From an uncultured delta proteobacterium (GTDB lineage: Bacteria; Myxococcota_A; Polyangia; Fen-1088), in the NCBI GenBank assembly GCA_963796685.1, contig CAWCMR010000012.1:13587-77586 (forward strand): a stretch of DNA of 64,000 nt. The letters run 5' to 3'. Shown here in pieces: positions 1 through 19,783 of this stretch. Below the pieces are notes generated by a model. It ran no database searches. It had not been told where the DNA came from and saw nothing but the letters and a program-made list of their open reading frames with translations. The position numbers were made by a program, and so were the translations under genes. The first letter of the stretch is position 1, and every line of letters begins with the position of its first letter.

Positions 1-1554
1 GGCCAGAAGATCCTGGCTGCGCTGGAAAAAGCCGCCGAGAGCGACATCATGGACGTGGTCTACCTGACCAACTTCTCGTGCGGGCCGGACAGCTTTTTGC
101 TCAGCTACGCCGAGGAGATCATGGGCAACCGGCCCATGCTCATGCTCGAGCTCGACGAGCACGGCGCCGATGCCGGCTACATGACTCGGCTCGAGGCGTT
201 CTTCGACGTGCTCCGCCGCCCGCGCCCGCCGCGCGGTTCGCGCACCGAGGTGCGCCCCGAACCCACCGACATGCGCGACCGCACCATCTGGTTGCCGCCC
301 ATGCACCCCTTCGGCACGCGCCTCTTTGCCGCGGCCTTCCGCTCGCACGGCTACGACGCCCGCCTGTTGCCCGAGGAAAACAAGGAGTCCTTCGAGATCG
401 GCCGCTCCCTCACCCGCGGCTCCGAGTGCCTGCCCTGCGCGCTGACTCTCGGCACCTTCCTCAAGACCCTGCGCGAGCAACCGCGCGGCGGCAAGCACGC
501 CTTCTTCATGCCCAGCTCCAAGGGCCCGTGCCGGTTCGGCCAGTACACGATTCTGCACCGGCAGATCCTCGAGCGCGAGGGCCTCGGCCACGAGGTCGCC
601 ATCCTGGCCCCGGCGTCGAACAACGCCTACCAGGGGCTCGACAGCCCCATGCGCAAGTCGCTGTTCAAGGCCATCGCCTGCGCCGACATCCTGCTCAAAG
701 CCCAGTGCAAGGTGCGGCCCTACGAGGTCAAGATGGGCGAGACCGATCGCGTGGTGAACGAAGGCCTCGAGTTGGTTTGCCGGGCCGTCGAAGAGCACGG
801 CGACATCCCCGCCGCCCTGAAGGTCGCCATCCAGAAGATCGCGGCCATCGAGACCGCGGGTCCGCGCAAGCCGCTGGTCGGCATCGTGGGCGAGATCTAC
901 GTGCGCAACAACGTCTACGCCAACGAGGATGTCATCGGTGCCATCGAGATGTTCGGGGGCGAGGCGTGGATGCTGCCCATCACCGACTGGATCCTCTACA
1001 CCTCGTCACTGGAGAACTACAAAGAAGAGTTCCCGTCGACCATCCTCTCGTGGGACAAGGCCGACACCTTCATCACCTACACCTGGATGAAGCACTGGGA
1101 GAAGAAGCTGATGGAGGCGGCCAGCCCCCTCCTCGACGATCGGCACGAGCCCGCCTTCCAGGAATGCCTGGAGATCGCCACGCCCTACATCCCCTTCTAC
1201 CTGGGCGGCGAGGGCAAGCTGTCGGTGGGGCGGGCCATCAAGTTCGCGCAGCAGGGCGCGGCCATGGTGGTGAACTGCGCGCCCTTCGGCTGCATGCCCG
1301 AAACCGTGGCCACCGCGATCTTCGGACGGCTTTCGGCGGACGTCGACATGCCCATCGTCAGTCTCTTCTACGACGGCAGCGGCGGACAGAATCGCCGGCT
1401 CGAGGTCTTCCTCAACAACGCGGTTCGAGGCCGGCGCGGCCTGGCCGGGATCACCGAAGGCGCGGGCAAGCTTGCCACCGAATTCCCGAATCGCGATCAG
1501 CTCGTGCCCGCGCAGAATCTTACGTCGCGCGTGCGTCCCGGCGGCGAAGCGTAG
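1..1554 (+). CDS. 3' part of an acyl-CoA dehydratase/activase-related protein (DUF2229-type region of BadF/BadG/BcrA/BcrD-family CoA-enzyme activase fusions). The 5' end lies outside the window. Copy 1 of a duplicated segment.
   Basis: Frame 1 is open from base 1 (GQKILAALEKAAESDIMD...), and the ORF track gives 49..1554. Motifs YLTNFSCGPDSF and NCAPFGCMPE match this family as I recall it. A near-identical paralogue lies at 11112..12665. Confidence 0.7.
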   Translation, partial: GQKILAALEKAAESDIMDVVYLTNFSCGPDSFLLSYAEEIMGNRPMLMLELDEHGADAGYMTRLEAFFDVLRRPRPPRGSRTEVRPEPTDMRDRTIWLPPMHPFGTRLFAAAFRSHGYDARLLPEENKESFEIGRSLTRGSECLPCALTLGTFLKTLREQPRGGKHAFFMPSSKGPCRFGQYTILHRQILEREGLGHEVAILAPASNNAYQGLDSPMRKSLFKAIACADILLKAQCKVRPYEVKMGETDRVVNEGLELVCRAVEEHGDIPAALKVAIQKIAAIETAGPRKPLVGIVGEIYVRNNVYANEDVIGAIEMFGGEAWMLPITDWILYTSSLENYKEEFPSTILSWDKADTFITYTWMKHWEKKLMEAASPLLDDRHEPAFQECLEIATPYIPFYLGGEGKLSVGRAIKFAQQGAAMVVNCAPFGCMPETVATAIFGRLSADVDMPIVSLFYDGSGGQNRRLEVFLNNAVRGRRGLAGITEGAGKLATEFPNRDQLVPAQNLTSRVRPGGEA

Positions 1555-1649
1555 AACGGGCCCCGGCCGGCCCGGTCGGCCCGATTGGGCTCCTAGCTCG
1601 CGGGTGCTTGCGGCTCGGGCGGCAACGCCGGCTGACCTTCGTAAACAAG

Positions 1650-1880
1650 CCAAATCCTGCGCATCTTCATCGATACCGTGGCGGCCGACTACCGCAAGCG
1701 ACTGGCGGGACGGGACATCTCAGCCGGCAAGCTCCGCCCGGCGCGGACACCTGACGGCGCCGGGTGACGGTGAGGTCACGTCGTGACCGACGAGACCGTG
1801 GGCGACAAAGATCCGAGCCGTCCGCGGTCGCCGCCGCTACAGGTGCTCTGGCAATGCCCGAAGCCCACATGCGCTGCCGC
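1650..1880 (+). pseudogene. Possible strongly decayed IS91-family transposase remnant downstream of copy 1
   Basis: ILRIFIDTVAADYRKR... parallels VLRIFTDTVAPSYGK... after copy 2. A weak ...SPPLQVL... sits where copy 2 has the HUH motif SPHFHVL. Several frames and stops are involved. Confidence 0.25.
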
Positions 1881-2115
1881 TTCACCGATTCGACTGGCTT
1901 TCCGGCACTTCCTGGCGCCGCTCCGGGCGAACGCAGCCTATCGGGACCTGGCGAACCGTCAAGAAAGTCGGGGCAGGGCGGTTAACATCACGGCGCGCCG
2001 CGTATGACATCAAGAATCGGCCATGCCGGTGAGCGCCCGGCCACGATTCCGCCTAAATTATCGTTAGGAAAGCCGGGAGAGTATCATTTCGCCCAGCCAT
2101 GCTGCCCGATCTTCC

Positions 2116-4794
2116 ATGAGCCCCACCAACCACAGCCCTGCACCGACACAGCCCGAGCCAGCGTTCCCCTACGGAGCAAGCTGGGTCAGGGTGGACTTCC
2201 ACCTGCACACGGTGGCCGACAAGGAGTTTCGTTTCTCCGGCGACTCGAACTACTACCATAGCAACTACGTCGATGCGTTGGAGAAGGCAGGGATCCGGCT
2301 GGGGGTGATCACCAACCACAACAAGTTCGAAATCGAGGAGTTCAAGGCGCTGCGTTCAGCGGCCAAGAAGAAGGGGATCGCCCTGTTGCCCGGCGTTGAG
2401 CTGTCGGTAAGCGAGGGGGCCAACGGGATCCATACCCTCGTCGTGTTCGCGGAGGAATGGCTCGCGGAGGGCCGGGACTACATCAATCCGTTCATGACCG
2501 TCGCATTCGAGGGGAAGGTACCGTCACAGTTCGAAAACGAGAATGGTCGGTCGTCGCTCTCACTTCGAGAGACCATTCAGAAGCTGGAAGGCTACAGTCG
2601 GGACTTCTTTCTAGTTTTCGCTCACGTGGAGGACGGGAACGGCCTGTGGGCTGAGCTCGAAGGTGGGCGTCTCCAAGAATTGGGAAACGAAGAGCTCTTT
2701 CACCGTCGCACCTTGGGATTTCAGAAGGTCCGCACGCACGATGGCGCTGGCAAAGGCGCGCCCTGCCGAACCAAGGTTCAAGAATGGTTGAAGGACGCCT
2801 ATCCTGCCGAGGTCGAGGGCAGTGATCCGAAGAGGCTCGAGGAGATCGGTAAGGGCGAGCCCTGCTATCTCAAGCTGGGCGAGCTGTCCTTCGAGGCGGT
2901 CAAGTTTGCTTTGCGCGCCCATCGCGACCGAGTCGCAAAAGAGATCCCGCGTCGATCCACTTCCTGTCTCCGCAGCGCCCATTTCGAAGGCGGCGTCCTC
3001 GATGGTCAGACGATTCGATTCTCGCCGGAGCTGAACGCGCTGATCGGCATTCGCGGCAGCGGCAAGTCGTCGATTCTGGAAACCATCCGCTACGCCCTCG
3101 ACATCCCTCTTCCACAAGGCAGACGGGCAGCGGACGTAGAGTACAAAGACGGTCTCGTGAAGCACGCCCTCGGCAGCGGTGGAAAAGTCACCCTCACTGC
3201 GGTTGACACCTACGGCCAGGAATTCACCGTGTCGCGCATCTTCCGCGAGATGCCCAACGTGTATCTCGCTGGCAAGTTACAGCCCGGCGTATCCATCCGC
3301 GAAACGGTGCTTCGGGGCCCCATCTACTTCGGCCAGAAAGAGCTCGCGGCCGGCGACGCGCAAGATCTGGTCGAAAAGCTCACCGGCGAAAAGCTGGCGC
3401 CTTTGCGGGCGCAGATCGAGGAACAAAGGCAGAAGGTCAAAGACGCGGTAGAGCGCTTCCGCAGGTTGAAGGACTCGGCACAGCAGAAGGCGGAGTACGA
3501 GAGACAGCTCAGCGACGCGGAGTTCCGGCTCAAGAAGTTCAAGGAACACGGCGTGGAGAGCAAGCTCAACCGTCGCCTTGGCTTCCAGAAGGACCAGGGT
3601 CTCCTTGACCGGGTCGGCTCCCGCGTGGTCGCCTTTCAACACGGGTTGGAGAGCTTCGTTGCAGAACACGAAGACGATCTACGCAATGCCGCGTCCTACC
3701 AGTCCACGGAGAACAAAGCCTTCTTCGAACGGTACTTCGACGAATACCGTGGCGTGCTTGCGCAGTTGGACGCCCTGAAGGAAGCCCAGTCGAAACTGGG
3801 CGCTACTTCTGCGAGGCTCGACCAGATGCGGGCCGAGTTCGACGCCACCGCAAGGGGGCTTCAGGACGAGTTTGCCCAGATCGAGCGTGCGTTGGCGGAA
3901 GAGCTGAGGCAGACCGGCTCGGCGGCGATTCAGCCCGACGACTTCCTGCAACAGCAACAGAGGAAGCTCAAGGCCGAGCAAATGATTGAGGCCTTGACCA
4001 AGCAGGAGGCACAACAAGTCTCCAGTCGCGACGCCCTCCTGAAGGAGCTCGATGCTCTGAACGAATTGTGGCTAAAGGAATTCAAGACCATCAAGACCGA
4101 GCTGGACCGCGTGAACGCCAACCACACTGCCTTGCAGGTTGAGTTGAAATTCAAAGGGGACAAGGACGCGGCCATCGCGTTCATGAAGAGCCTCTACAAG
4201 GGCAGCGCCATCCGCGAGACGACCCTAACGTCCGTGATGGAGGACTACGCCGACTTCGGCGCCCTCTTTCGCGACCTTGGCCAGGCCAAGACCAAGGCGG
4301 GTAGCTCTCCAGACCTCTTCGAAGAGAGATTCTTGGAGAACCTCTCCGAGCTCCTCACCTGGCAGGTGCCAAACCGCTTCCGGATCCTCTACCGCAACAA
4401 GGAGCTGCGACACCATTCTCTTGGACAGCGCGCTTCCGCTCTCATTCTCTTTGTGCTGAGCCAGCGAAAGAATGACGTCATCATCATCGACCAGCCTGAG
4501 GACGATCTCGATAACCAGACGATCTACGACGATGTCATCGCGCTGCTGTGCAAGCTCAAGCCGCAGACCCAGTTCATCTTTGCCACCCACAACCCCAACG
4601 TGCCGGTGCTGGGTGACGCAGAACAGGTCCACGCCTGCAGCTACCAAGACGACAAGATCCAGGTGCAAAGCGGTGGTATTGATGCCCAAACCATCCAGGA
4701 AGACATCATCGGGATCATGGAAGGCGGACGCGAGGCTTTCGCCAAGCGCTCCGACATCTACGGCCAATGGAAACAGCAGAGCTCATCGAAATAG
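2116..4794 (+). CDS. PHP-domain phosphoesterase fused to an SMC/Rad50/OLD-like ABC ATPase with a long coiled coil (Ppl/TrlF-like architecture)
   Basis: 892-aa ORF. PHP-type metal motifs: VDFHLHT (2191-2211), ITNHN, GVELS..GIHTLV, FAHVEDG. Walker A is GIRGSGKSS (~3049-3072). An E/K/Q/L-rich predicted coiled coil of ~300 aa spans ~3350-4200. Signature-like SLGQRA, Walker B VIIIDQPEDDLD (4476-4511), H-loop FATHNP. Confidence 0.85.
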   Translation: MSPTNHSPAPTQPEPAFPYGASWVRVDFHLHTVADKEFRFSGDSNYYHSNYVDALEKAGIRLGVITNHNKFEIEEFKALRSAAKKKGIALLPGVELSVSEGANGIHTLVVFAEEWLAEGRDYINPFMTVAFEGKVPSQFENENGRSSLSLRETIQKLEGYSRDFFLVFAHVEDGNGLWAELEGGRLQELGNEELFHRRTLGFQKVRTHDGAGKGAPCRTKVQEWLKDAYPAEVEGSDPKRLEEIGKGEPCYLKLGELSFEAVKFALRAHRDRVAKEIPRRSTSCLRSAHFEGGVLDGQTIRFSPELNALIGIRGSGKSSILETIRYALDIPLPQGRRAADVEYKDGLVKHALGSGGKVTLTAVDTYGQEFTVSRIFREMPNVYLAGKLQPGVSIRETVLRGPIYFGQKELAAGDAQDLVEKLTGEKLAPLRAQIEEQRQKVKDAVERFRRLKDSAQQKAEYERQLSDAEFRLKKFKEHGVESKLNRRLGFQKDQGLLDRVGSRVVAFQHGLESFVAEHEDDLRNAASYQSTENKAFFERYFDEYRGVLAQLDALKEAQSKLGATSARLDQMRAEFDATARGLQDEFAQIERALAEELRQTGSAAIQPDDFLQQQQRKLKAEQMIEALTKQEAQQVSSRDALLKELDALNELWLKEFKTIKTELDRVNANHTALQVELKFKGDKDAAIAFMKSLYKGSAIRETTLTSVMEDYADFGALFRDLGQAKTKAGSSPDLFEERFLENLSELLTWQVPNRFRILYRNKELRHHSLGQRASALILFVLSQRKNDVIIIDQPEDDLDNQTIYDDVIALLCKLKPQTQFIFATHNPNVPVLGDAEQVHACSYQDDKIQVQSGGIDAQTIQEDIIGIMEGGREAFAKRSDIYGQWKQQSSSK

Positions 4795-5930
4795 TCAGCC
4801 GGGGCGAGGATAGTCGACACCAGTTCAAGGCCAATGTGACCAATGAAGTGCAATTGGCACAGGAGATTGTTGCGTTCAGCAATAGTGGCGGTGGGCAAAT
4901 TGTCATCGGCGTTGCCGAAGGCGACCACGCGATCCGTGGGCTCGATGCCGCAGGCATCGGCCGACTCAACCAGCTCGTCTCCAATGCGGCCTCGCAGCAT
5001 GTACGTCCGGCGGTTAATCCCATCACGGAGAATGTTGCCCACCCCCAGGGCACTGTCATGGTAGTGACGATTATGGATGGGGTGGCGAAACCCTACATGG
5101 ACAAGGATGGCGTGATTTGGGTCAAGACCGGCGCCGATAAGCGAAAAGCTACCTCACGTGAAGAAATCCAGCGCATGTTTCAGCAAAGCAGCCTGGTTCA
5201 CGCCGACGAAGTCCCTGTCACCGGAACTGGCGTAGGCGACGTGGATCTGGCCTACTTCGAGGCGTTCTTCAATCAGCAACCGTTCGATGCGCCTCTTGTC
5301 AACCAGCCGGTCCCCTTGCCACGGCTGCTGACCAACATGAACCTCATGCGCGGCGAATTCCTCAACCTCGCAGCGGTTCTGCTCTTCGCTCGTGCTCCGC
5401 AATACCGATTGCCGGCATTCATCGCGAAGGCCATTGCGTATCCTGGTGTAGAGGCCGATGAGGCAGCGTATCTGGATTCGCGCGACATCGTGGGAAGGCT
5501 GGCCGATGTGTTTCAGCAGGCGTTGGGCTTTCTGAGCGCAAACACAGGAACCCATCAAGGCGACCGGGGTGTCAACTCTACCGGAGAACCCGAGATCCCG
5601 AGGATTGTATGGGAAGAGCTCGTCGCCAATGCGCTCGTTCATCGCGACTATTTCATCACCGCGCCTGTTCGCATCTTCGTATTCGCCGATCGGGTCGAGA
5701 TCATCAGTCCTGGCCATCTTCCGAACAATCTCACCGTGGAAAACATCTTGAAGGGCAACTCGAACATCTGGAATCCGGTCCTGGCGTCCTTCGCCGCGAA
5801 GCTCCTGCCGTACCGAGGATTGGGCAACGGCATCCTGAGAGCAAAGAAGGCCTATGCCGAAATCGAGTTCACCGATGATCGTGAAGCCAACCTGTTCAAG
5901 GTGACCGTGGCGCGACCAGGGCGCGGTTAG
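4767..5930 (+). CDS. AlbA_2 (Schlafen-type) domain protein with a C-terminal HATPase_c_4-like domain (often annotated as a RecG-like putative DNA-binding/ATP-binding protein)
   Basis: 387-aa ORF overlapping the upstream gene by 28 nt. The N-terminus carries SRHQFKANV...IVAFSNSGGGQIVIGV. The C-terminus carries ANALVHRDY...VRIFVFADRVEIISPGHLPN. Confidence 0.85.
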   Translation: METAELIEIVSRGEDSRHQFKANVTNEVQLAQEIVAFSNSGGGQIVIGVAEGDHAIRGLDAAGIGRLNQLVSNAASQHVRPAVNPITENVAHPQGTVMVVTIMDGVAKPYMDKDGVIWVKTGADKRKATSREEIQRMFQQSSLVHADEVPVTGTGVGDVDLAYFEAFFNQQPFDAPLVNQPVPLPRLLTNMNLMRGEFLNLAAVLLFARAPQYRLPAFIAKAIAYPGVEADEAAYLDSRDIVGRLADVFQQALGFLSANTGTHQGDRGVNSTGEPEIPRIVWEELVANALVHRDYFITAPVRIFVFADRVEIISPGHLPNNLTVENILKGNSNIWNPVLASFAAKLLPYRGLGNGILRAKKAYAEIEFTDDREANLFKVTVARPGRG

Positions 5931-6070
5931 GGCGGCCGCACGAGACCTTGCAGCACCGGCGCAGGTTCGATGCGTCACCTCGGCTCGGTCCTGGTTGTTT
6001 CCGTCTTCCTCTCCGCGCCTTCCTGTGGACGAATTGTCACACTGGCGCCGCTGACGCCCACCAAGTCGAT

Positions 6071-6985
6071 ATGACCAACACCACGATTCCACCTTTCACC
6101 CCGAACCCCTTGTGTCCTGACTGCGCAAATTCACCAGGCGATGCGACGTGCGTCTACGCGGCCGTGCGCGGTGACAGGCCTGCCCTGGAGGAGCTGATAC
6201 GCCGCCACCAGGGTTTCGTGCACAGCCTCGCGCGGAGGATGCTCTACTCGCCCGAGGATGCGGCCGACGCCACTCAGGAAATCCTGATCCAGATCGTGAC
6301 CAGCTTGGCGTCGTTTCGTGGCGAGGCCAGTTTCCGCACGTGGGCGTATCGGATCGCCGTGCGACACCTGCTCGCCTGCAAGAAGGGACGTGTGGAAAAC
6401 GTAGTGCGCGGCTTCGGATGTTTCGCGCAAACCCTCGATGCCACCCCAAACCTCGACCCACCTGACGAGGGTACCCTTCCCGTCGATGTCCTCTTGGTCA
6501 TCGAAGAGGCGAAGGTGGGGTGCCTGATGGCGATGCTGCTGTGCCTCGATCGAGAGTATCGCGTGGCTTTCGTTCTGGGCGAGATCTTCGAGGCAAGTGA
6601 CGTCGTGGCTGCGGAGGTACTCGGCATTTCCAGCGACAACTTCCGGCAGCGGCTAGCGCGTGCACGCGAGAAATTGCGCCAGTTCCTCACGGGGCGTTGC
6701 GGGCTCCTCGATGATCACGGAAGCTGCCATTGCGCGCGCAAGACCAAGGGATTCATCAACCAGGGAATCGTCGATCCATTACGCCTTCGCTTTACCCAGG
6801 TACACCTCGATCACACCAAGGAACAAGCCATCGTGGGAGTGCGCGACCTGCAACACCACGTCGAGCAAGCCTACGTCCAACTACTGCGCTCACAGCCCCT
6901 GCCCGAGCCGCCTCCCTTCGCGGAGATCCTGCGCGATGTGCTCGCGCATCCCCAGGTTCGACAAACCCTCAACTTGGAGAACTGA
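6071..6985 (+). CDS. ECF-type RNA polymerase sigma-70 factor with a Cys-containing C-terminal extension
   Basis: Start chosen at ATG 6071 (the ORF track opens at 5948). Region 2 reads DATQEILIQIV...FRTWAYRIAVRH. Region 4 reads AAEVLGISSDNFRQRLARAREKL. A ~110-aa extension carries CGLLDDHGSCHC, and the N-terminus carries CPDCANSPGDATC. Confidence 0.8.
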   Translation: MTNTTIPPFTPNPLCPDCANSPGDATCVYAAVRGDRPALEELIRRHQGFVHSLARRMLYSPEDAADATQEILIQIVTSLASFRGEASFRTWAYRIAVRHLLACKKGRVENVVRGFGCFAQTLDATPNLDPPDEGTLPVDVLLVIEEAKVGCLMAMLLCLDREYRVAFVLGEIFEASDVVAAEVLGISSDNFRQRLARAREKLRQFLTGRCGLLDDHGSCHCARKTKGFINQGIVDPLRLRFTQVHLDHTKEQAIVGVRDLQHHVEQAYVQLLRSQPLPEPPPFAEILRDVLAHPQVRQTLNLEN

Positions 6986-7757: not shown

Positions 7758-8351
7758 TTAGAGGGGACCACACGAGGAGCCCGGAATTGGCCCGCAGGTT
7801 TGAATGATGTCGCCTCGACATCGCTGCGCGACACAGGGAGGGGCTCCTACGGCGTTGCAGTCGGCATCGCTGCTGCAGCCGATCACGTTCGCCGCTGAGC
7901 AACTAGTGGCGATGCGGCCAGGGCCGACGTTGTGGCAGGCGCTAGCCCAGGTTTGTGGCGGACTGTAAGACACAAACCAGCAGCAGAGCTCGCCAGGGCC
8001 GCAATCGGCAGTCTCGTCGCACGTGCGCGGCCAGGCAATGCATCCCGCGTTGGAGCGCCAATCGCAACCGGTGGAAGCTGGACTGCCTTCACCATTGCGA
8101 AGGCAGCATTCATAGCCCTCGGAGCAAACAGTCGCCCCGCAGCGCACCCGTCCGGGAGTCGGCGGCAAGAGGCCGCCATCCTGGGTCGGCAAGCCGGCGT
8201 CCGACGTCGGCACCAGGCCGGCGTCTTTCGATACGGCTCCACCTGCCATGGTGTTCAACGGCGTGCGCCCGCCACAGGCAGTGCAAAAGATGCCCATGGC
8301 CAGGACAAGAGATCCCTTTGTCGAGAATCCGTGCATCGAGCTGGCTGGCAT
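7758..8351 (-). CDS. Cys-rich secreted lipoprotein, paralogue A
   Basis: 197 aa with lipobox-like LAMGIFCTAC and about 20 Cys. Blocks CDETADCGPGELCCW and VGAPPCVAQRCRGDIIQTCG are shared with 8405..8977. Confidence 0.7.
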   Translation of the reverse strand: MPASSMHGFSTKGSLVLAMGIFCTACGGRTPLNTMAGGAVSKDAGLVPTSDAGLPTQDGGLLPPTPGRVRCGATVCSEGYECCLRNGEGSPASTGCDWRSNAGCIAWPRTCDETADCGPGELCCWFVSYSPPQTWASACHNVGPGRIATSCSAANVIGCSSDADCNAVGAPPCVAQRCRGDIIQTCGPIPGSSCGPL

Positions 8352-8404: not shown

Positions 8405-8977
8405 CTATTCACGAGCTGGCGGACAGGAGCTGCTCGGTATGTACCCGCAGGTTTGAATGATGTCACCTCGGCATTGCTGCGCGACACAGGTGGGAGCGCC
8501 GACCACGTCGCAGTCGGCCTCGCTGCCGCAACCGACCAAGTCCAGCGGTGGGCAACCGGTCGCGCCCAGGTCAGCGCCGGGGCTATAGCAGTAGCTGGCC
8601 AACGTGGCCGGTGGACTGTAAACGACATCCCAGCAGCACAGCTCGTCGAGGCCACAGTCGGCAGTCTCGTCACATTCGCGTCGCCCTGACGAGCCATCGC
8701 AAACTGCGCCCGGACGTCTATCGCAACCGATGGAAGCCGGGTCGCCTCGGCTCTCGCGAACGCAGCATTGGTAGCCCTCGGCGCAGACAATGTCTCCGCA
8801 GCGCACAAGTCCCGGAGTCGGCGGCAGGAGTCCGCCATCCCACGTAGCCAAGAGGCCACCATCGCGGGCCGAATGGCCGTGCATCGGGGTGGACCCGCAG
8901 GCGGCGCACAGCACACCCAGAGCCGCGAGAAGGCCACTCGTCAAAGAAGATCCGTTCACCAAGAGAGTCAAGATCAT
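8405..8977 (-). CDS. Cys-rich secreted lipoprotein, paralogue B
   Basis: Start placed at ATG 8977 (MILTLLVNGSSLTSGLLAALGVLCAACG) inside ORF 8405..9262. The Cys pattern matches 7758..8351 (CDETADCGLDELCCW, VGAPTCVAQQCRGDIIQTCG). Confidence 0.7.
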   Translation of the reverse strand: MILTLLVNGSSLTSGLLAALGVLCAACGSTPMHGHSARDGGLLATWDGGLLPPTPGLVRCGDIVCAEGYQCCVRESRGDPASIGCDRRPGAVCDGSSGRRECDETADCGLDELCCWDVVYSPPATLASYCYSPGADLGATGCPPLDLVGCGSEADCDVVGAPTCVAQQCRGDIIQTCGYIPSSSCPPARE

Positions 8978-9020
8978 TGCATCTTGCCTTCGAAATCGGC
9001 GGTCGTCCTGAGGCGCGGCG

Positions 9021-10397
9021 CTATTCGAGCCACCGCACCACAATTCCACCTGTTCCGGTTCGAGACCAGGCCGCGAGCGCTCGATTGCCCCCCATGGCCA
9101 CCGCTCCTCCGTTGACCGTGCAGGTGCTGGTACTGTCGAGCTGTACTGGACTGGTCCATCCATTCGTCGGATCGAAATGGCTCGCCCAGATCTCCTGGTC
9201 GAAGGCGGTGCAAGGGCCACTCCGCCACAGCGCCCAGGCGTCGCCATTTGGCGCCATGGCAAGGTCGCCGAGCTGATAGTGACTCTCGGCCTGCGACGGA
9301 CTCAGCGGGGTGGTGCTTTGCCACCCGGCGCCCTCGATGTAGTAGCGGGCGGCGACGGTCGTATTGCACGCCGCTCCGGGCTCGTTCGTCCAAGCCGCGA
9401 GGGCGTTGGAAGCGAGATCCGTGACCATGCGCTGGCCGTACCTGTTGGTAACACCATCATTTGCAATAACTGTCTCGCCCGTGCTCCACTCCCCGGTCGA
9501 AAGCAATTCCGCGTGCATCAGGCCACCACTCGCGTTCCACAGTGCGTGCGTGCGCCCACCGATGCAGGCGGCGAGTTCTACATTGCTGGCATCTTGTGAG
9601 ACGGTCACTGGGGGAAGCCGACTGGCGGCCGGATCCCAGGAGTTCGACTCGAGGATCGTGGACAGCGCGTCCCCTGGGGAATTTTGAGTCGAGGTGACCA
9701 CAAAGCCACCAGATGCCGTTACCGACGCGGTCGGGGAACCGCTCGGCATGCCGAAGAGCTGTTCAGGCTGCCAGGAGAGGTCGAAGATGCTGGCCGCCAC
9801 TTGGAGGGAGTCACGATCAATCCACGTCACCATGGCCGCGTTCTGGCCGAGCACTGCAACCGGTGGGGCAAGAGACGGATCTTGCCGCGTGCCCGTCGAG
9901 GTGACACCAATCTGCACTGCGGACCATCCCCCTGGGGTAAAGCGGGCCGCGTAGATTTCTGCCGAGGTGGACGCCCCCGGCAAGCTCGCCAGCGCGACAA
10001 GTGCGGCCCCGCTCCGCAAGGCAACGGAGGTTGCAAACCCGCCTTCCAATAAGAGCTCGGCATCGCTCCAGCCGACGCCTGACGTGTAGCGACGTGCCTG
10101 CGCCCGCCATGTCGTTCCAGTCCCAACGGACCACACGACGATTGCATTCCCCTGCTCGTCCATCGCGACCAGAGGCGACTGGCCTTCGGTTTCGAACCCG
10201 TCTGGCTCGTCGACAACAGCGCCGCCGGCTAGGCCGCCATCCAATGGGTCAATACAACGTGTGGTGGAGCTGTCGACAAGGTCGGTCGCCGTATCTTGCG
10301 GCGCTTGGGCATCCCGCGCTGGTTGTCCCGGAGACCTCGAATGACTGCAGCCGATGACCGCGAGGCAAGCGCAAATCAACTTCCTCGATTCGAACAT
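9021..10397 (-). CDS. Hypothetical secreted lipoprotein (repetitive, beta-rich)
   Basis: Start placed at ATG 10397 (MFESRKLICACLAVIGCS, signal plus lipobox) inside ORF 9021..10535. 458 aa. I recognised no family. Confidence 0.6.
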   Translation of the reverse strand: MFESRKLICACLAVIGCSHSRSPGQPARDAQAPQDTATDLVDSSTTRCIDPLDGGLAGGAVVDEPDGFETEGQSPLVAMDEQGNAIVVWSVGTGTTWRAQARRYTSGVGWSDAELLLEGGFATSVALRSGAALVALASLPGASTSAEIYAARFTPGGWSAVQIGVTSTGTRQDPSLAPPVAVLGQNAAMVTWIDRDSLQVAASIFDLSWQPEQLFGMPSGSPTASVTASGGFVVTSTQNSPGDALSTILESNSWDPAASRLPPVTVSQDASNVELAACIGGRTHALWNASGGLMHAELLSTGEWSTGETVIANDGVTNRYGQRMVTDLASNALAAWTNEPGAACNTTVAARYYIEGAGWQSTTPLSPSQAESHYQLGDLAMAPNGDAWALWRSGPCTAFDQEIWASHFDPTNGWTSPVQLDSTSTCTVNGGAVAMGGNRALAAWSRTGTGGIVVRWLE

Positions 10398-10499: not shown

Positions 10500-12665
10500 G
10501 TGGTGTGGATAGGCGGTGGTGGAGGCCGAAGTCATTTCCGTCCTTTGGGGTGTCCGTGCAGCGCGCGAGGGCAGGTTTCCCTGGGTTTGCGGGTCCTTTG
10601 GAGGCTGTCTCCATCACTGCACGTCAAGAACACGCCGGCCAACGAAGAAACCACGGGCACCACGGTGTGTCCCTTCGTGCAGGGGACCGGCTCCGCCGCG
10701 CGCACGGCGCTGATGATGAACCACGTCGACGCCTCTCGCCTGCTGGTTCCGCTGGTCGACATGCGCATGCGCGAGAACGAGATCATCAAGACCCTGTCCG
10801 ACGGGCTGTCGCGAGCCCTCGGCTGCTCGTCGCGAAACATCAAGAAGGCGTGGCGCGCGGGCCTGGAGGCGCAGGCCGATTTCGAGAACCGCTGCTACGA
10901 CGAGGGCGCGAAGTTCATCGCCGAGGCCGAGGCGAAGAAGGAAAACGTCATTCTGCTGGTCGGCCGTCCCTACAACAACTACGACGCCGGCGCGAATCTC
11001 GGCCTGCCGCAGAAGATCGCGGATCTCGGCCGCACCGTCCTGCCCATGGACTTCATCAAGCCCGAGCTCGGCCGCCTGGGCGAGCGCTACCGCAACGCCT
11101 TCTGGAGCTACGGCCAGAAGATCCTGGCCGCGCTGGAAAAGGCCGCCGAGAGCGACATCATGGACGTGGTCTACCTGACCAACTTCTCGTGCGGGCCGGA
11201 CAGCTTCCTACTCAGCTACGCCGAGGAGATCATGGGTAACCGGCCCATGCTCATGCTCGAGCTCGACGAGCACGGCGCCGACGCCGGCTACATGACTCGG
11301 CTCGAGGCGTTCTTCGACGTGCTCCGCCGCCCGCGCCCGCCGCGCGGTTCGCGCACCGAGGTGCGCCCCGAACCGACCGACATGCGCGACCGCACCATCT
11401 GGTTGCCGCCCATGCACCCCTTCGGCACGCGCCTCTTCGCCGCGGCCTTCCGCTCGCACGGTTACGACGCTCGCCTGTTGCCTGAGGAAAACAAGGAGTC
11501 CTTCGAGATCGGCCGCTCCCTCACGCGCGGCTCCGAGTGCCTGCCTTGCGCGCTGACCCTCGGCACCTTCCTCAAGACCCTGCGCGAGCAACCGCGCGGC
11601 GGCAAGCACGCCTTCTTCATGCCCAGCTCCAAGGGCCCGTGTCGGTTCGGCCAGTACACGATCCTGCATCGGCAGATCCTCGAGCGCGAGGGACTCGGCC
11701 ACGAGGTCGCCATTCTCGCCCCGGCGTCGAACAACGCCTACCAGGGGCTCGACAGCCCCATGCGCAAGTCGCTGTTCAAGGCCATCGCCTGCGCCGACAT
11801 CCTGCTCAAAGCGCAGTGCAAGGTGCGGCCCTACGAGGTCAAGATCGGCGAGACCGATCGCGTGGTGAACGAAGGGCTCGAGCTGGTATGCCGGACCGTC
11901 GAGGAACACGGCGATATTGCCGCAGCCTTGAAGGTCGCCATCCAGAAGATCGCGGCCATCGAGACCGCGGGTCCGCGCAGGCCGCTGGTGGGCATCGTCG
12001 GCGAGATCTACGTGCGCAACAACGTCTACGCCAACGAGGACGTCATCGGTGCCATCGAGATGTTCGGCGGCGAGGCCTGGATGCTGCCCATCACCGACTG
12101 GATCCTCTACACCTCGTCGCTCGAGAACTACAAAGAGGAATTCCCGTCGACCATCTTCTCATGGGACAAGGCCGACACCTTCATCACCTACACCTGGATG
12201 AAGCACTGGGAAAAGAAGCTGATGGAGGCCGCCAGCCCCTTCCTCGACGATCGGCACGAGCCCGCCTTCCAGGAATGCCTGGAGATCGCCACGCCGTACA
12301 TCCCGTTCTACCTGGGCGGCGAGGGCAAGCTGTCGGTGGGCCGTGCCATCAAGTTCGCGCAGCAGGGCGCGGCCATGGTGGTGAACTGCGCGCCCTTCGG
12401 CTGCATGCCCGAGACCGTGGCCACCGCGATCTTCGGTCGGCTCTCGGCGGACGTCGACATGCCCATCGTCAGTCTCTTCTACGACGGCAGCGGCGGACAG
12501 AATCGCCGGCTCGAGGTCTTCCTCAACAACGCGGTTCGCGGCCGCCGGGGTCTGGCCGGGATCACCGAAGGCGCGGGCAAGCTCGCCCCCGGATTCCCGA
12601 GTCGCGATCAGCTCGTGCCCGCGCAGAACCTCACCTCGCGCGTGAGGCCGGGCGGCGAAGCGTAG
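10500..12665 (+). CDS. 5'-truncated paralogue of the CoA-dehydratase/activase-related gene (copy 2). It lacks the N-terminal ATPase modules, and its start is uncertain.
   Basis: 721-aa ORF. Recognisable homology begins around CPFVQGTGSAARTAL (~10660). The gene abuts the divergent gene starting at 10397, so no room exists for the usual N-terminal half. ATG candidates are 10500 and 10713. Confidence 0.6.
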   Translation: MVWIGGGGGRSHFRPLGCPCSARGQVSLGLRVLWRLSPSLHVKNTPANEETTGTTVCPFVQGTGSAARTALMMNHVDASRLLVPLVDMRMRENEIIKTLSDGLSRALGCSSRNIKKAWRAGLEAQADFENRCYDEGAKFIAEAEAKKENVILLVGRPYNNYDAGANLGLPQKIADLGRTVLPMDFIKPELGRLGERYRNAFWSYGQKILAALEKAAESDIMDVVYLTNFSCGPDSFLLSYAEEIMGNRPMLMLELDEHGADAGYMTRLEAFFDVLRRPRPPRGSRTEVRPEPTDMRDRTIWLPPMHPFGTRLFAAAFRSHGYDARLLPEENKESFEIGRSLTRGSECLPCALTLGTFLKTLREQPRGGKHAFFMPSSKGPCRFGQYTILHRQILEREGLGHEVAILAPASNNAYQGLDSPMRKSLFKAIACADILLKAQCKVRPYEVKIGETDRVVNEGLELVCRTVEEHGDIAAALKVAIQKIAAIETAGPRRPLVGIVGEIYVRNNVYANEDVIGAIEMFGGEAWMLPITDWILYTSSLENYKEEFPSTIFSWDKADTFITYTWMKHWEKKLMEAASPFLDDRHEPAFQECLEIATPYIPFYLGGEGKLSVGRAIKFAQQGAAMVVNCAPFGCMPETVATAIFGRLSADVDMPIVSLFYDGSGGQNRRLEVFLNNAVRGRRGLAGITEGAGKLAPGFPSRDQLVPAQNLTSRVRPGGEA
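11112..12665 (+). repeat. Dispersed direct repeat: second copy of bases 1..1554 (offset exactly 11,111 nt, no indels)
   Basis: Both stop codons align (1552-1554 against 12663-12665). In the first 360 aligned nt I count 11 mismatches, all synonymous. The translated tracks differ at 9 of 501 residues. Confidence 0.95.
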
Positions 12666-12668
12666 AGC

Positions 12669-12866: not shown

Positions 12867-13250
12867 GTGCGTCCGGCATGGACGCAGAACAAGAGGTGAA
12901 GCCATGAAATAGCCAAGTCCTCTGGGGACCCTGACGGAGGGAACCTCCCACCTACGAGACAAGGGCGCCGGTCTGGAGCACCAGGCCAGACGGGCCGCAA
13001 GGCCCGTCTCCCGCGAGGAGGTGTCTGGTGGAAGTCTATGGTGCAGCGCCGAACCGAACGAAAGTGAAGCGCCGTAAGGCGTGGGTACCGCTGGGCAAGC
13101 TGGCCTTCGGCGGCAAAGCCCAATATTCGTCGGGCGGCCCGCGTAGTGGCGACGGAGTCGGTGCGAAGTTCTGCGTTCTTACCCGGAGAGACCTCTTGGC
13201 CTCCGCGGCGAGGAATCGCAAGCGGAATTCATCGAGAACGAAAGGACGAG

Positions 13251-14811
13251 ATGAAGAAGGGACAAGAGGAGTCGGATGGTCGCGTAATACCGGAAGGCCG
13301 GCGAAAGCCGGTTCCAACCGCCAGAAGGCGGGGAGGGAAGGCGACCACGGCCAGCAAAGAGGCAAGGCAGCTCGGACTGTTTCCCGAGACAGCCGACAAC
13401 CCGAAAGGGACCACCGCCCAAGCGGATCCGGGCCAACCCGTGCCTGCGCGGAGCGAGGTGCCGAAGTCGGGGAACGAGGAAGAGAGGACCTTGCCGCCCA
13501 TGACGATGGAGGAGGTAGCGAGCGAAGGAAACCTGAAAAGAGCGTTCGAGCAAGTGAAGGCCAACAAAGGCGCACCTGGACCGGACCGGCAAAGCGTGGG
13601 GGAAGTGGCGAAGGGGTTGGGGACGCTGATACCGGCGCTGTCGCGGTCGCTGCTCGACGGGACATACCGAGTCGGAGACATCCGGCGGGTATGGATACCG
13701 AAGAGCGGTGGCGGGCGGCGGGGCCTTGGCATACCGAACGTGGTGGACCGCGTGGTTCAGCAGGCCGTGCACCAAGTGCTCGGTCCGCATTATGAGCCGA
13801 CGTTTCACCCGTCGAGCCACGGTTTCCGACCTGGGCGCAGCCTGTCACACGGCCATCGCCGAGGCCAAGCAGTATCTGGAGGAAGGGTACGAATGGGTGG
13901 TCGACCTCGACCTGGAAAAGTTCTTTGACTGGGTCCACTGGCAACGGCTGGTGGCGCGGCTAGAACAGAGGGTTAAGGACCGGCGGCTCATCGAGCTCAT
14001 CTGGCAGATGCTGAAAGCCAAGGTGGTGATGCCCGACGGAGTGGTGGTGGCGACGGAAGAAGGAGTGCCACAAGGTGGTCCGCTTTCGCCGTTACTGAGC
14101 AATATCGTGCTGGACGAGCTCGACCGCGAGCTTGCCCAACGCGGTCACCGCTTCGTGCGCTATGCGGACGACTGCAACATCTACGTCGGAAGCGAGCGCT
14201 CGGGTCAGCGTGTGATGGCCAGCGTGGTCAAGTTCATCGAAGGCCGGATGCGGTTGAAGGTGAACTTGGCCAAGAGCGCGGTGGCCCGACCGGAAGAGCG
14301 GCACTTTCTGGGATTCCGGCTGCGGCGCGAGCCGCTGACGGGGGAAGCGGAGGTGCTGCTGTCGGCGCGGAGCAAAAGCCGCATTGACGAGAAGGTCCGA
14401 GAGCTGACGCCGCGAAACCTTGGGCAGTCCCTCAAGGGCTGCATCAAACAGGTCAACGCGTATTTGCTCGGATGGATCGGCTTCTTCTGTATCTGCACGG
14501 CCGCGGAAGAGCGGACGCTGCAGGCACTCGACGCACACATCAGGCGGCGGCTGCGAGCGATAGTGCTACGGCACTGGAAACGCAGACGCTTCATCGCACG
14601 ACACCTCATCAGCCTGGGGGTGAGACCGAAAACCGCGTGGCAAGGGGTCTACAAGGGGCATCGCTCCTGGTGGGCGCTGAGCCACACATCGGTAGTTGAA
14701 CGAGGACTGCGCAACGCATATTTTGCCGAACGCGGGCTTGTCAGCCTGGCCGAGCGGTGGAAGGACCATCACGCCTTGGACTTCATGGACCCGGCCCTGG
14801 AGCCAGGATAG
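13251..14811 (+). pseudogene. Group II intron-encoded reverse transcriptase/maturase, frameshifted at ~13842, with no C-terminal HNH endonuclease domain visible
   Basis: ORFs 13146..13928 and 13708..14811 join as ...HGFRPGRS|CHTAIAEAKQYL... with one extra c at 13842. RT motifs: LKRAFEQVKANKGAPGPD, RRVWIPKSGGGRRGLGIP, RYADDCNIYV. The protein ends soon after the maturase (X) region. Confidence 0.8.
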
Positions 14812-14870
14812 CTGCGGGCAGCAATGCCGGCGCTGGACTACGGGTCGCTCCCGAACGCCAGCGTCCCGAA

Positions 14871-14942
14871 GAGCCGGATGTGAGGCCCACAAGTCCGGTT
14901 CTGTGAGAGCTGGGGGAGGGTAACCTCCCCTGGCTACTCGAC
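14871..14942 (+). ncRNA. Group II intron domains V and VI (catalytic hairpin and branch-site helix)
   Basis: Domain V is gagccggatgtgaggcccacaagtccggttc, with an AGC triad at its 5' base. Domain VI pairs gagagc-tgggggagg with cctcccctg-gct(A)ctc around a GTAA loop, leaving A14936 bulged. Confidence 0.6.
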
Positions 14943-15096: not shown

Positions 15097-16197
15097 ATGC
15101 TGGAGCAGTTTTTCACCTATGACTATGTGCTGGCTCGCCTTCGCGGCGGAGCGCTGGGCGGGATCCTTGACGATGTCGCTGCGCATTTGGAGAAGCGCGG
15201 TCATACACCGAGAGTCGGGCAATCGTACCTGTGCGCAGCCGGCCACTTCTCCCATTGGTTAGATCTCAAAAGGATCAGCCCGAACGCGGTGGGGGAAGTT
15301 ACCCTAGCGTCGTTCCTGGAAGGGCACCTCCCGCGATGCAAGTGTCGGGTGCCACACGGGTTGCGTTGTCACATGCGGGCGGCACTGGACCACGTGTTGG
15401 CCGTGCTGCGCGCACAGGGCGTAGCCACCCCCCCACAGCGGCCAGTGCAGACGCCTGTGGACCGTATGCTTGAGTCCTTCAGGACCTACCGACAAAACAC
15501 GTGCGGAGTGACCGATGCCACCAGCCAGGGCAACGTCTTGCACGTTCGTCGGTTTCTGGTTTCCCTCTACGGGACTGGCGAGATCGATCTGCGCCGGCTT
15601 GGGCCCAAGGAATTGATTGGCTTCGTGTCGGAGCAGACCAGAAAGTACTCGCCGGGCGCGGCGGGGCTTGTCCGAACGGCGTTGCGTAGCTTCCTTCGAT
15701 TTGCGCAAGTCGCTGGCCTGTGCGAAGGGACACTGGCAGCCGCTGTTCCCAAGGTGGCGCATTGGCGCCGAGCGAATCTTCCCCGAGGTCTGTCCGACGA
15801 GCAACTCGCCGCCTTGCTTGCGTCGTTCGACTTGACCGCGGCGACTGGACGGCGGGACTACGCGATGGTTTCGTGCATGGCTGGGCTTGGCTTGCGGGCC
15901 GGCGAAGTCGCTGCGCTGTTGCTCGATGACGTGGATTGGCGGGCGGGCACCTTGCGAGTCGGTCGCGGAAAGGAGCGGCGGGCCAGTGTCCTGCCGCTGC
16001 CCGCACCGGTGGGGCGCGCACTGGTTGACTACCTACGCCGCGGCCGGCCGCACACCGACGATCGTCACATGTTCGTCCGGCACCAGCTGCCGGTGGGCCA
16101 GCCGCTCAGCTCCTCGGCTGTGACAGCCGCTGTCCGACTGGCCTTCACGCGTGCGCGGCTGACCTTTCCATTCAAAGGCGCCCACGTCTTGCGCCAT
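15097..16197 (+). pseudogene. ritA: Outer RIT tyrosine recombinase A, 5' portion (interrupted after the H-x-L-R-H box)
   Basis: ORF 15097..16290 reads normally up to ...FKGAHVLRH. It then runs into the inner element IR (YAESPVMPSE...). The remainder resumes at 19625. Confidence 0.8.
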
Positions 16198-16224
16198 TAT
16201 GCCGAGTCCCCGGTTATGCCGAGT
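16196..16224. repeat. Inner RIT left terminal inverted repeat (two tandem tatgccgag motifs)
   Basis: Perfect 29/29 reverse-complement match to 19564-19592. A third, inverted copy (ctcggcataa) lies at 16281-16290. Confidence 0.9.
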
Positions 16225-16337
16225 GAGCCTCTCGATCTGGCGCGATCAACGGCGATTTCCTCGGCAGGTGGGCTTGCGGACTCGGCATAACCAGGGCGTC
16301 GTCGTCTCCTTCTGGCCACCGGGCCGAAGGAGGACAC

Positions 16338-17571
16338 ATGCCCCGGATGCACGACGATTTTCTGAAATGGCAACGACTGCGCGCTGGCCCCTTGGGTCCG
16401 CACCTCGACACGTTTGCAAAAACGCTCACTGAGAGGGGATATCCGCCTGCGACCGTGGCGTGCAAGGTGCGCCTGGCAGCGAAGTTCGGAGACTGGCTTG
16501 GACGGCGAGGACTGACTGTCGAGGAGGTCGACGAGCAGGCCGTAGCCCGCTTTGTCCGGCGCCATCCCTGCGTACCCCGGCGTGGAGACGCAGCGACATT
16601 GCGTGATGTCCTTGAACGGGTCCGTTCCGCCGGTCTTGCGCCGCCAGCGCCCGTCAAGGTCGATGACACTGCGATCGGGCGGATCGTGAGTGAGTTCGGC
16701 CGGTATCTGTTGGTGGACCGCGGCTTGTCCGTCTTGACTCAGATCAACTACCTGCCCATTGTCCGCTCGTTCCTCCTGGAGCGGTTCGACGGCAGGAGGG
16801 TGCAGCCTCAATGCGCTCGGGCCCCAGGATGCGGGTGAATTTCTGGTCCGGCATGTTCACGTGGTCCATCCAAAGAGAGCCGCTCTGATGGTTACCGCCC
16901 TACGCGGTTTTCTGCGGTGGGTGCACGTGAAAAGAGCCCTGGCTGCAGACCTCGCGGCCACGGTTCCCGCGGTCGCCTGCTGGCGTTTCTCAACGGTGCC
17001 GAAATCGATCCCCGCGCGCGACGTCGAGCATCTGTTGCGCCGCTGTCGACGAAGAAACTCCGAAGCCGGCCTGCGCGACCACGCGGTCATTATGCTGATG
17101 GCACGACTCGGCCTCCGCGGTGGAGAAGTCGTGAGCCTGGATCTGGCAGACTTCGACTGGGCCGCAGGCACGTTGCGGGTCCACGGCAAGGGTGGGCGGC
17201 AAGACGTCCTCCCGTTGCCGTCCGATGTCGGCAAGGCCGTCGCCCGGTACTTGCGCCATGGCCGCCCAGCATGCTCGTGCCGGAGAGTCTTCGTCCGCGC
17301 GAGAGCGCCGCGGCGTGGCTTCGCAACCACGGGCGCGGTCTGTACGATCGTGAAGCGAGCGCTGGAACGCGCCGAACTGGACCCACCACGCAAAGGCGGG
17401 CACATCCTCCGCCATGCGCTCGCCTGCTCGATGCTGCGCCGAGGAGCGACCCTTACCGAGATCGGGCAGGTCCTGCGACACCGTCGAGCCGATACGACGA
17501 CGATTTACGCGAAGGTAGACTTCCATGCGCTACGTGCGCTCGCTCCTGCATGGCCAGGAGGCAGGCGATGA
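16338..17571 (+). pseudogene. ritA: Inner RIT tyrosine recombinase A with a single-nt frameshift near 16800
   Basis: ORFs 16338..16838 and 16759..17571 join as ...FLLERFDGRRV|SLNALGPQDAGEFLV... if one nt is removed in gtgcagcctc. The C-terminal catalytic boxes are intact (GGHILRHALA...LRHRRADTTTIYAKV). Confidence 0.75.
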
Positions 17572-19498: not shown

Positions 19499-19563
19499 TT
19501 ATGCCGAGTCGCGCACGTAAGCGAACCCGAAGTCCCCGTGATTCCTGCATGCAATGGCGGGCA

Positions 19564-19592
19564 ACTCGGCATAACCGGGGACTCGGCATAAT
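19564..19592. repeat. Inner RIT right terminal inverted repeat
   Basis: Exact reverse complement of 16196-16224. A third motif copy (ttatgccgag) at 19499-19508 follows the ritC stop directly. Confidence 0.9.
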
Positions 19593-19622
19593 GCCGCTTA
19601 TGCCGAGCACGGCATAAGCGGC
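19593..19622. repeat. Perfect 13-bp-stem palindrome (gccgcttatgccg-agca-cggcataagcggc) abutting the inner RIT right IR
   Basis: Read directly. It contains the element motif tatgccg and its complement. Together with the IR tip it also forms ctcggcataa-tgccgc-ttatgccgag. Confidence 0.85.
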
Positions 19623-19624
19623 AC

Positions 19625-19783
19625 ACGGCTGCGACGCGCATGGTTCGCGCGGGAGCCAGTCTCAAGCAGGTAGCGGATGTCCTTCGCCACCGCAGTCTCG
19701 AAACGACTCAGATCTACGCCAAGCTCGACCTGGCCACGCTGGCTGAGGTCGCGCTGCCTTGGCCCGAGGTGGATCATGAGTAG
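19625..19783 (+). pseudogene. ritA: Outer RIT tyrosine recombinase A, 3' portion (catalytic Tyr region)
   Basis: TAATRMVRAGASLKQVADVLRHRSLETTQIYAKLDLATLAEVALPWPEVDHE* continues ...HVLRH from 16197. Confidence 0.75.

Follow-up and report, generated by a model that had tools for sequence, protein, structure and literature searches.

An orthologue of the Photorhabdus trlF-trlG pair, joining a Ppl-related PHP/ABC protein to a Schlafen/GHKL protein, as a candidate abortive-infection-like module

The window analysed here is a 64,000-nt stretch of contig CAWCMR010000012.1 (positions 13,587-77,586, assembly GCA_963796685.1) and, close to its start, it carries a two-gene cassette that homology identifies as an orthologue of the trlF-trlG pair from the Photorhabdus 'temperature restriction locus' (TRL). 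On the comparative analysis set out below, the pair is probably a module for anti-phage defence and not a system of a new kind. The open reading frame (ORF) calls confirmed both genes and the overlap between them, as given by a first-pass annotation of the stretch, and the cassette is made up of the following features:

2116..4794, plus strand: trlF, encoding an 892-aa fusion of a PHP phosphoesterase and an SMC-like ABC ATPase (ORF call, NCBIfam, homology)
2182..2880, plus strand: PHP domain of TrlF, about residues 23-255, with the motifs DFHLHT, ITNHN, GVELS...GIH, FAHVE and GSDPK
2965..3360, plus strand: N-terminal half of the ABC head, with Walker A GIRGSGKSS and Q-loop Q407 (SMC_N and AAA_29 matches)
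3364..4119, plus strand: antiparallel coiled-coil insert, residues 417-668, without a zinc hook (AlphaFold2 secondary structure)
4120..4794, plus strand: C-terminal half of the ABC head, with signature SLGQRA, Walker B IIIDQPE, D-loop and H-loop ATHNP (AAA_21 match)
4767..4794, plus strand: 28 nt over which the trlF stop region and the trlG start overlap (ORF calls)
4767..5930, plus strand: trlG, encoding a 387-aa Schlafen/AlbA_2 plus GHKL ATPase protein of the 'Schlatpase' architecture (ORF call, Pfam, Foldseek)
4806..5150, plus strand: AlbA_2/Schlafen domain of TrlG, with the variant motif E14-D15-x3-Q19-x-K21 and the Schlafen box VAFSN
5601..5861, plus strand: GHKL (HATPase_c_4) ATP-binding domain of TrlG, with N288, H292-R293-D294, S314-P-G316, G330-N-S-N and G353-x-G355

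The larger protein scores 558.8 bits on the NCBIfam model TrlF_fam_ATP (NF045780, 'TrlF family AAA-like ATPase'; cut-off 350), residues 20-883 aligning with model positions 2-944, and the TrlF and TrlG proteins of the Photorhabdus caribbeanensis locus (L076 in our numbering of surveyed loci) are 51% and 57% identical, respectively, to those of the window; because of these identities and the model match we regard the cassette as a new copy of a gene pair that already has a name. It agrees in the order of the genes, their overlap and the Pfam domain coordinates with the Photorhabdus operon, where AlbA_2 was placed at residues 14-128 and HATPase_c_4 at residues 298-365 of TrlG and where TrlF was annotated as 'histidinol phosphatase' (Hapeshi et al. 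2020, PMC7554251), whereas the window cassette lacks the upstream gene trlR and does not lie at the polA-dsbA site. No homologue of the 82-aa ORF of L076 was found in window positions 1300-2146 or in the other 79 loci of our main survey, and the published survey placed trlR in only few genera (PMC7554251). The first-pass suggestion that the pair may be uncharacterised does not stand, since it is the TRL operon described in 2020 in Photorhabdus laumondii with a growth-arrest phenotype; the claim is true only of an anti-phage role and of the biochemistry. The two genes have therefore been published already, together with their name, their domains and a phenotype, and RefSeq annotates TrlF by name; new here are the counts of the pairing from either gene, the embedding of the pair in restriction operons, its carriage by Tn7-like elements and IncC plasmids, the placing of TrlF as a paralogue of Ppl, and an invariant glutamine in the Schlafen motif.

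Residue conservation in TrlF was followed in an alignment of 81 orthologues. In the PHP domain, H29, H31, D35, H68, E95, H170 and D237 are invariant and H106 is kept in 80 of the 81 proteins, so that eight of the nine ligand positions are occupied; the final DxH reads D237-x-K239 with an invariant Lys, and the metal site that had looked complete at first sight is complete but for its last His. The Walker A, signature, Walker B and H-loop motifs picked out in the same annotation are all present, with Walker A K317, Q-loop Q407, signature S768/G770/Q771, Walker B D792, Q793 and E795, D-loop D799 and H-loop H825 invariant, and the alignment indicates that both predicted catalytic centres are under strict purifying selection. 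The Walker B reads D-Q-P-E (window positions 4489-4500, residues 792-795), with an invariant Gln at the usual place of the catalytic Glu. We dropped this as a TrlF-specific trait, as the same DQPE occurs in two bona fide Ppl proteins (L170 and L188); the distant loci had been fetched with an IIDQPED pattern and the distribution of DQPE among them is not informative. Among the Pfam profiles checked for the two proteins, AAA_21 (TrlF residues 762-829), SMC_N and AAA_29 on TrlF and SLFN_AlbA_2 and HATPase_c_4 on TrlG matched, while PHP stayed below threshold (20.8 bits against a gathering score of 26.4). The PHP fold is supported by collinearity with Ppl, by structural matches and by the invariance of the ligands, and its catalytic activity is predicted.

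AlphaFold2 models of TrlF and TrlG were of low confidence (predicted local distance difference test, pLDDT, 56 and 64, respectively) and were used for fold class only. In the TrlF model, helices at residues 417-477, 481-527, 534-600 and 608-668 form a predicted coiled coil of about 250 aa, about 125 aa per arm, which agrees with the presence of the coiled coil proposed earlier and not with its length of about 300 aa. Foldseek searches with this model returned the heads of MukB, Smc, JetC and Rad50 and the PHP domains of RNase AM and Pol III alpha, and a PDB sequence search gave only a marginal match to an Smc head. Like Rad50/SbcC with SbcD, TrlF has an ABC head that is interrupted by an antiparallel coiled coil and goes together with a metal-dependent phosphoesterase. 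However, its coiled coil is short, its nuclease domain is a fused PHP domain where theirs is a separate Mre11-type subunit, and MukB, Smc and JetC rank above Rad50 in the Foldseek list. In addition, no Cys is found between residues 285 and 811 and, because the coiled coil has no Cys, a Rad50-type CxxC zinc hook is absent. NCBIfam Rad50 models score 17-27 bits on TrlF against cut-offs of 700-1087, and no SbcD-like neighbour of trlF was seen among the window ORFs and Pfam matches. Membership of Rad50/SbcC was rejected on account of the missing hook and the tiny model scores.

The relative that matters most is Ppl, which Gao et al. reportedly identified in 2020 as a single-gene anti-phage protein with PHP and NTPase domains. 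Ppl is reported to be a single-stranded DNA 3'-5' exonuclease that is inhibited by nucleoside triphosphates (NTPs) and requires 3'-OH ends (review PMC12904381). By BLASTP, TrlF is collinear with the Ppl of L170 over residues 14-878 at 23% identity with every motif in register, which bears out the relationship to Ppl suggested at first pass. The two proteins have the same length and the same order of PHP domain, ABC head, coiled coil and ABC head, and the Walker B/D-loop string IIIDQPEDDLD is identical, but the last PHP motif is GSDSH in Ppl and GSDPK in TrlF. On the Ppl model (NCBIfam NF042955, cut-off 1000) TrlF scores 136.9 bits, whereas the proteins of L170 and L188 score 1153 and 1137 bits; this shortfall led us to reject filing the large protein as Ppl itself, and we place TrlF, on sequence grounds, as a paralogue of this anti-phage exonuclease. 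Ppl works alone, with no TrlG-like gene at Ppl loci, whereas the TrlF clade is nearly always accompanied by trlG: the stand-alone gene that defines Ppl is not what is found here, as trlG overlaps trlF in the window and in 72 of 74 loci. No Ppl structure surfaced in the Foldseek search with the TrlF model. A TrlF profile search collected 1,245 clusters at 50% identity (E <= 1e-30), Ppl and other relatives included. As a separate observation, the Ppl proteins of L170 (7995-10664) and L188 (7952-10603) also exceed the TrlF 'equivalog' cut-off (about 495 bits against 350); Ppl is nested in the TrlF family as NCBI defines it, and the two curated families are not mutually exclusive.

TrlG begins with METxELIE, conserved among orthologues, and both of its domains lie above the Pfam gathering thresholds (SLFN_AlbA_2, PF04326, residues 14-128; HATPase_c_4, PF13749, residues 299-365), in agreement with the architecture read at first pass and with the Schlatpase order of PF04326 followed by PF13749, the ATP-binding motifs being conserved. 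Across 154 orthologues, the GHKL motif residues listed above are all fixed or nearly fixed: N288, G316, G353 and G355 are invariant, D294, S314, S332 and N333 are kept in 153 and N331 in 146. Foldseek with the TrlG model matched 3LMM over the whole length as well as SLFN5/11/13/14, the SAMD9 tRNase domain and the catalytic and ATP-binding (CA) domains of histidine kinases, and the PADLOC model for prokaryotic Argonaute (pAgo) matched residues 29-319. Prokaryotic Schlafen domains are tRNA endonucleases with the motif E-x4-(D/E)-x-K (Cash, PMC13462974; SLFN-pAgo, bioRxiv 10.64898/2026.05.29.728809), and the SLFN+GHKL 'Schlatpase' supradomain tetramerises upon ATP binding in SLFN-pAgo and is exchanged among pAgo, NACHT and type I restriction-modification contexts (bioRxiv 10.64898/2026.05.29.728809). 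TrlG shares with Cash and SLFN-pAgo the AlbA_2 plus PF13749 GHKL supradomain and the Schlafen box VAFSN, and the TRL pair shares with them the link to restriction-modification loci and the outcome of growth arrest. It differs in its partner, which is a separate Ppl-like gene instead of a fused Csx15, Ago or NACHT sensor, and in the motif itself, which reads E14-D15-S-R-H-Q19-F-K21, that is E-x4-Q-x-K. E14, Q19 and N39 are invariant in all 154 orthologues and K21 in 153, so the tRNase form of the motif is absent from TrlG; Q19 is kept even in the 38%-identical TrlG of L163, whereas AlbA_2 proteins other than TrlG at the same loci have Glu at this position. In Cash, the substitution D22N at the equivalent position abolished cleavage (PMC13462974).

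The association of the two genes was then counted in both directions. Our main survey comprised 80 species-level genome loci with a TrlF relative at 48-68% identity, and trlG lies directly 3' of trlF in 72 of the 74 with enough downstream sequence (the exceptions are L022 and L024), the ORFs overlapping in all 72 pairs by 13, 19, 22 or 28 nt. Starting from trlG, trlF lies directly 5' in 69 of 77 informative metagenomic loci, about 10% of which are without trlF. Identities of TrlF and TrlG to the window proteins co-vary (r = 0.88, 122 pairs), down to a 39%/38% pair on the viral contig L163. The fixed, overlapping pairing proposed from this single locus is thus a general one, and the comparison indicates that trlF and trlG are inherited and expressed as a single translationally overlapping unit that moves horizontally. 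Exceptions go both ways. In L012, trlG has decayed to fragments; solo trlG occurs as hsdR-trlG-hsdS in L142 and by itself in L147. TrlF relatives at 46-49% and 37-39% identity are carried by IncF, Sulfitobacter, Listeria and Staphylococcus plasmids, and the IncF, Sulfitobacter and Listeria loci inspected have TrlF without trlG; because some solo TrlF nest inside the trlG-linked clade of a rough neighbour-joining tree, trlG has been lost repeatedly. One apparent natural loss of TrlF, a split trlF in E. coli genome H39, was discarded as an assembly error, since the neighbouring hsdS and AAA genes are split as well. Two of the solo loci have features of their own. In L159 (2635-8469), trlG without trlF comes after GmrSD_N, an AAA_15/AAA_21/DUF3696 ATPase and a 325-aa ORF of no known kind; 3' of trlG lies another AlbA_2/HATPase_c_4 gene, whose motif is the canonical E-x4-E-x-K. 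On the conjugative Sulfitobacter plasmid p2SUD7 (L198, 2476-7622), the solo TrlF-family gene is 0.8 kb 3' of a DUF4433 and macro-domain pair that looks DarT/DarG-type.

The places where the pair resides are rich in restriction and mobile genes, as had been anticipated for a defence module. By clustering of neighbouring ORFs, type I HsdR, HsdS or HsdM lies within 10 kb in 16 of the 80 loci and a methyltransferase/DEAD helicase/GIY-YIG set in seven, giving restriction-type clusters at 23 of 80 loci, and at 14 of 40 among loci of at least 15 kb; PADLOC assigned 11 of 61 downstream neighbours as type I restriction endonuclease or specificity subunits, all of these being raw counts. Immediate neighbours include HsdR, HsdS, N6/N4 methylases, AIPR, PglZ, MmeI-type enzymes and UvrD and, among mobile functions, resolvases, Mob proteins, transposases and type IV secretion proteins. 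In E. coli, where the pair is present in 38 of 5,426 complete genomes and those listed isolates for which a host is given come from humans, the order is hsdR-trlF-trlG-hsdS-AAA-hsdM, carried as cargo of a tnsABCD Tn7-like element between yhiN and yhiM; the same element is found on the IncC plasmid pNDM-1_Dok01. TrlF relatives occur in 240 plasmid records, 170 of them conjugative, and the pair is scattered patchily over the phyla, distant taxa sharing 65-70% identity. An 87%-identical relative adjoins serpin and PGA_cap genes, a context unrelated to that of the window, and for this reason we regard the pair as mobile. In seven loci (L002, L004, L007, L014, L025, L034 and L037) a large Eco57I/MmeI-like methyltransferase, a 686-aa DEAD helicase and a 435-aa GIY-YIG/T5orf172 protein precede trlF-trlG, often with 4-nt overlaps (e.g. 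L034:6701-9959), and the pair may have in this set a second host of restriction-like type.

The nesting between hsd genes recalls PrrC and RloC, anticodon nucleases found in type I restriction loci that carry an ABC ATPase, with a coiled coil in RloC. As in those systems, whose growth-arrest activity is directed at RNA, an ABC ATPase and a growth arrest are combined between hsd genes, the order hsdR-trlF-trlG-hsdS being that of E. coli and of five further genome loci, but the effector sequence is unrelated, TrlFG is made of two genes where they have one, and most TrlFG loci, the window included, are not beside hsd genes. PrrC and RloC are listed among the ABC-ATPase defences embedded in restriction-modification loci (bioRxiv 10.1101/2024.01.29.577857).

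Functional data for the pair come from Photorhabdus laumondii, in which trlR-trlF-trlG causes growth arrest at 36 °C, deletion of the operon or mutation of trlG permits growth at this temperature, loss of the whole operon is harmless, and both temperature up-shift and stationary phase induce the promoter (PMC7554251). About 16 distinct suppressor events of the arrest fell in trlG and none in trlF (PMC7554251). If trlF were equally required, the chance of all 16 falling in trlG would be about 0.3^16, or about 6e-9, by our own calculation with a target ratio of 0.3. We therefore take TrlG to be the growth-arresting component. Eleven suppressor-substituted positions all map onto the TrlG of the window and all but A193 (M194 in the window) are conserved; they include S16 in the Schlafen motif, V35 and A36 in the Schlafen box, A75, R80 and R126 in the AlbA_2 core, and P319, S332, N336 and G355 in the GHKL lid motifs. 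These data fit poorly with the model proposed at first pass, in which an SbcCD-like nuclease acts and the Schlafen protein is a passive binder, as all suppressors lie in trlG and none in the 2.3-fold larger trlF. TrlF also has neither a zinc hook nor an Mre11/SbcD partner.

Within the window, the cassette sits inside a 9.5-kb segment with a DUF2229/HGD-D gene at either end, the two copies being 95.5% identical. Five tyrosine-recombinase genes and an intact group II intron are found 7-16 kb downstream of this segment. The neighbouring features are:

1-1555 and 11112-12666: direct repeat of 95.5% identity, with weaker similarity on to 1729 and 12763, holding the copies of the DUF2229/HGD-D CoA-enzyme-activase-like gene
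49-1554 and 10500-12665: the DUF2229/HGD-D copies, the former cut by the window edge and the latter full length (721 aa)
7758-8351 and 8405-9262, minus strand: a pair of paralogous ORFs, rich in Cys and secreted-looking, that match no Pfam family and share 73% DNA identity over 263 nt
13007-14942, plus strand: apparently intact group II intron (Rfam D1-D4 at 13007-13177, 79.7 bits; Intron_gpII D5-D6 at 14869-14942)
13708-14811, plus strand: maturase ORF of the intron (RVT_1 and GIIM)
15097-21736, plus strand: five tyrosine-recombinase (Phage_integrase) ORFs in a row, with an AAA_14/DUF4143 ATPase after them at 22005-23144

The five recombinase ORFs look like one or two mobile elements of the recombinase-trio type. 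A decayed IS91 remnant had been placed beside the cassette; it was not found by Pfam searches of the ORFs in 1472-2007, by Pfam searches of all six frames of 1541-2130 or by blastn against plasmids. The G+C content is 59.4% for trlF and 57.5% for trlG against 64.7% for the whole window, falling to 57-61% over positions 2000-6000, which leaves the cassette 5-7 points under the window. At third codon positions (GC3) the two genes have 0.77 and 0.68, lower, as had been claimed, than the flanking duplicated gene (0.90-0.92) but similar to several other neighbours. Scans of positions 1500-6300 for sigma-70 promoters and terminators found nothing.

Taken together, these data lead us to favour, with moderate confidence, a reading of the TRL pair as a mobile defence-type module of an abortive-infection-like kind, in which TrlG would be the growth-arrest effector and TrlF a Ppl-like nuclease and NTP sensor. 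By analogy with Ppl, TrlF, with its 3'-5' exonuclease-type PHP domain and its coiled-coil ABC NTPase, would sense or attack foreign DNA ends and/or the nucleotide pool, and TrlG, which the conserved gene overlap would keep co-expressed with TrlF, would halt growth when the module is set off; the need for TrlG in arrest is shown genetically in Photorhabdus, the manner of arrest is a proposal of ours. An effector role for TrlG would also fit the location of the suppressor sites in the Schlafen motif and box or the GHKL ATP-lid, and the use of Schlafen domains as tRNase effectors in Cash and SLFN-pAgo. Because Gln replaces the Asp/Glu of active Schlafen tRNases, TrlG may work through E14/D15 as a re-wired site, or it may bind tRNA or other nucleic acid, driven by ATP, without cleaving it. 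Because about a quarter of the loci lie inside restriction operons, the module may, like PrrC and RloC, form a back-up line of defence, often to a type I restriction system. A bolder version is speculative and, all its parts taken together, rather unlikely: the TrlG clade would have its catalytic acid permanently changed to Gln and would arrest growth not by canonical cleavage but either through the re-wired E14/D15 or by sequestering tRNA or nucleic acid in an ATP-driven manner, coupled to a Ppl-family exonuclease and NTP sensor as a two-effector immune module that backs up restriction and is fortuitously triggered by heat in Photorhabdus.

Several observations weigh against a defence role with TrlG as effector. 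The sole phenotype known from experiment, a thermal arrest of growth, is read by its authors in physiological terms (PMC7554251), and in the searchable literature no phage or plasmid challenge of TrlFG was found, nor, on TrlF or TrlG as a phage defence, anything beyond the 2020 paper. No restriction or known defence gene adjoins the cassette in the window, where the neighbours are an extracytoplasmic function (ECF) sigma factor, a SnoaL-like protein and the secreted Cys-rich proteins. TrlG has Gln where D22N kills Cash activity, so cleavage of tRNA may not occur, and both genes also occur alone (solo TrlF on plasmids; solo trlG in L142, L147 and L159), so that a physical or regulatory coupling of TrlF and TrlG is not proven.

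The invariant Q19 at the catalytic acid position would also suit a reversal of roles, close to the first-pass model, in which a nuclease-dead Schlafen/GHKL TrlG recognises a nucleic-acid cue and licenses TrlF to degrade DNA. The invariance of the PHP and ATPase motifs, the existence of solo TrlF clades and the autonomous exonuclease activity of the effector Ppl all speak for TrlF as the acting partner, but no Photorhabdus suppressor fell in trlF, although it is 2.3 times the size of trlG, and the solo trlG within the hsd operon of L142 indicates that TrlG can be kept without TrlF; we consider this arrangement doubtful. The absence of trlF loss-of-function suppressors and the dependence of toxicity on TrlG would agree, too, with an addiction module of the toxin-antitoxin type, TrlG being the toxin and TrlF its restraint, that stabilises the carrier elements, and plasmid and transposon carriage and plasmid neighbours such as ccdAB, vapB and pemK are in keeping with this. 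Yet trlG is found without trlF in about 10% of loci and trlF without trlG in L022, L024 and the solo clades, which makes neither an obligate antidote; deletion of the whole operon is harmless, and an 892-aa nuclease/ATPase would be an unusual antitoxin. Addiction therefore strikes us as very improbable.

The Photorhabdus phenotype itself raises the question of a purely physiological growth governor, a temperature or stress checkpoint as proposed for that organism, with no immune role. The only experimental data, growth at 36 °C upon deletion or trlG mutation and promoter induction by up-shift and stationary phase, are of this kind, and in the window an ECF sigma factor adjoins the pair. A checkpoint of this sort is hard to reconcile with a patchy distribution across phyla at 65-70% identity between distant taxa, or with carriage on conjugative plasmids, as Tn7-like cargo and nested in restriction operons; the regulator trlR is absent from nearly all loci, the window included, and the 38 E. 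coli genomes with the pair, whose listed isolates with a stated host are human, presumably belong to strains that grow at 37 °C. We regard a governor of growth without an immune role as improbable.

The defence-type module with TrlG as its growth-arrest effector links three bodies of work that are unjoined in the searchable literature, namely the 2020 description of the Photorhabdus TRL, the Ppl exonuclease and the 2026 Schlafen tRNase effectors, and the Gln fixed in the Schlafen motif gives the TrlG family a peculiarity that is concrete and can be tested. If TrlFG is a defence system, the odd thermal arrest of Photorhabdus would be explained as an accidental activation of abortive infection, and a widespread two-gene system, present on clinically relevant IncC NDM-1 plasmids, would be added to those known.

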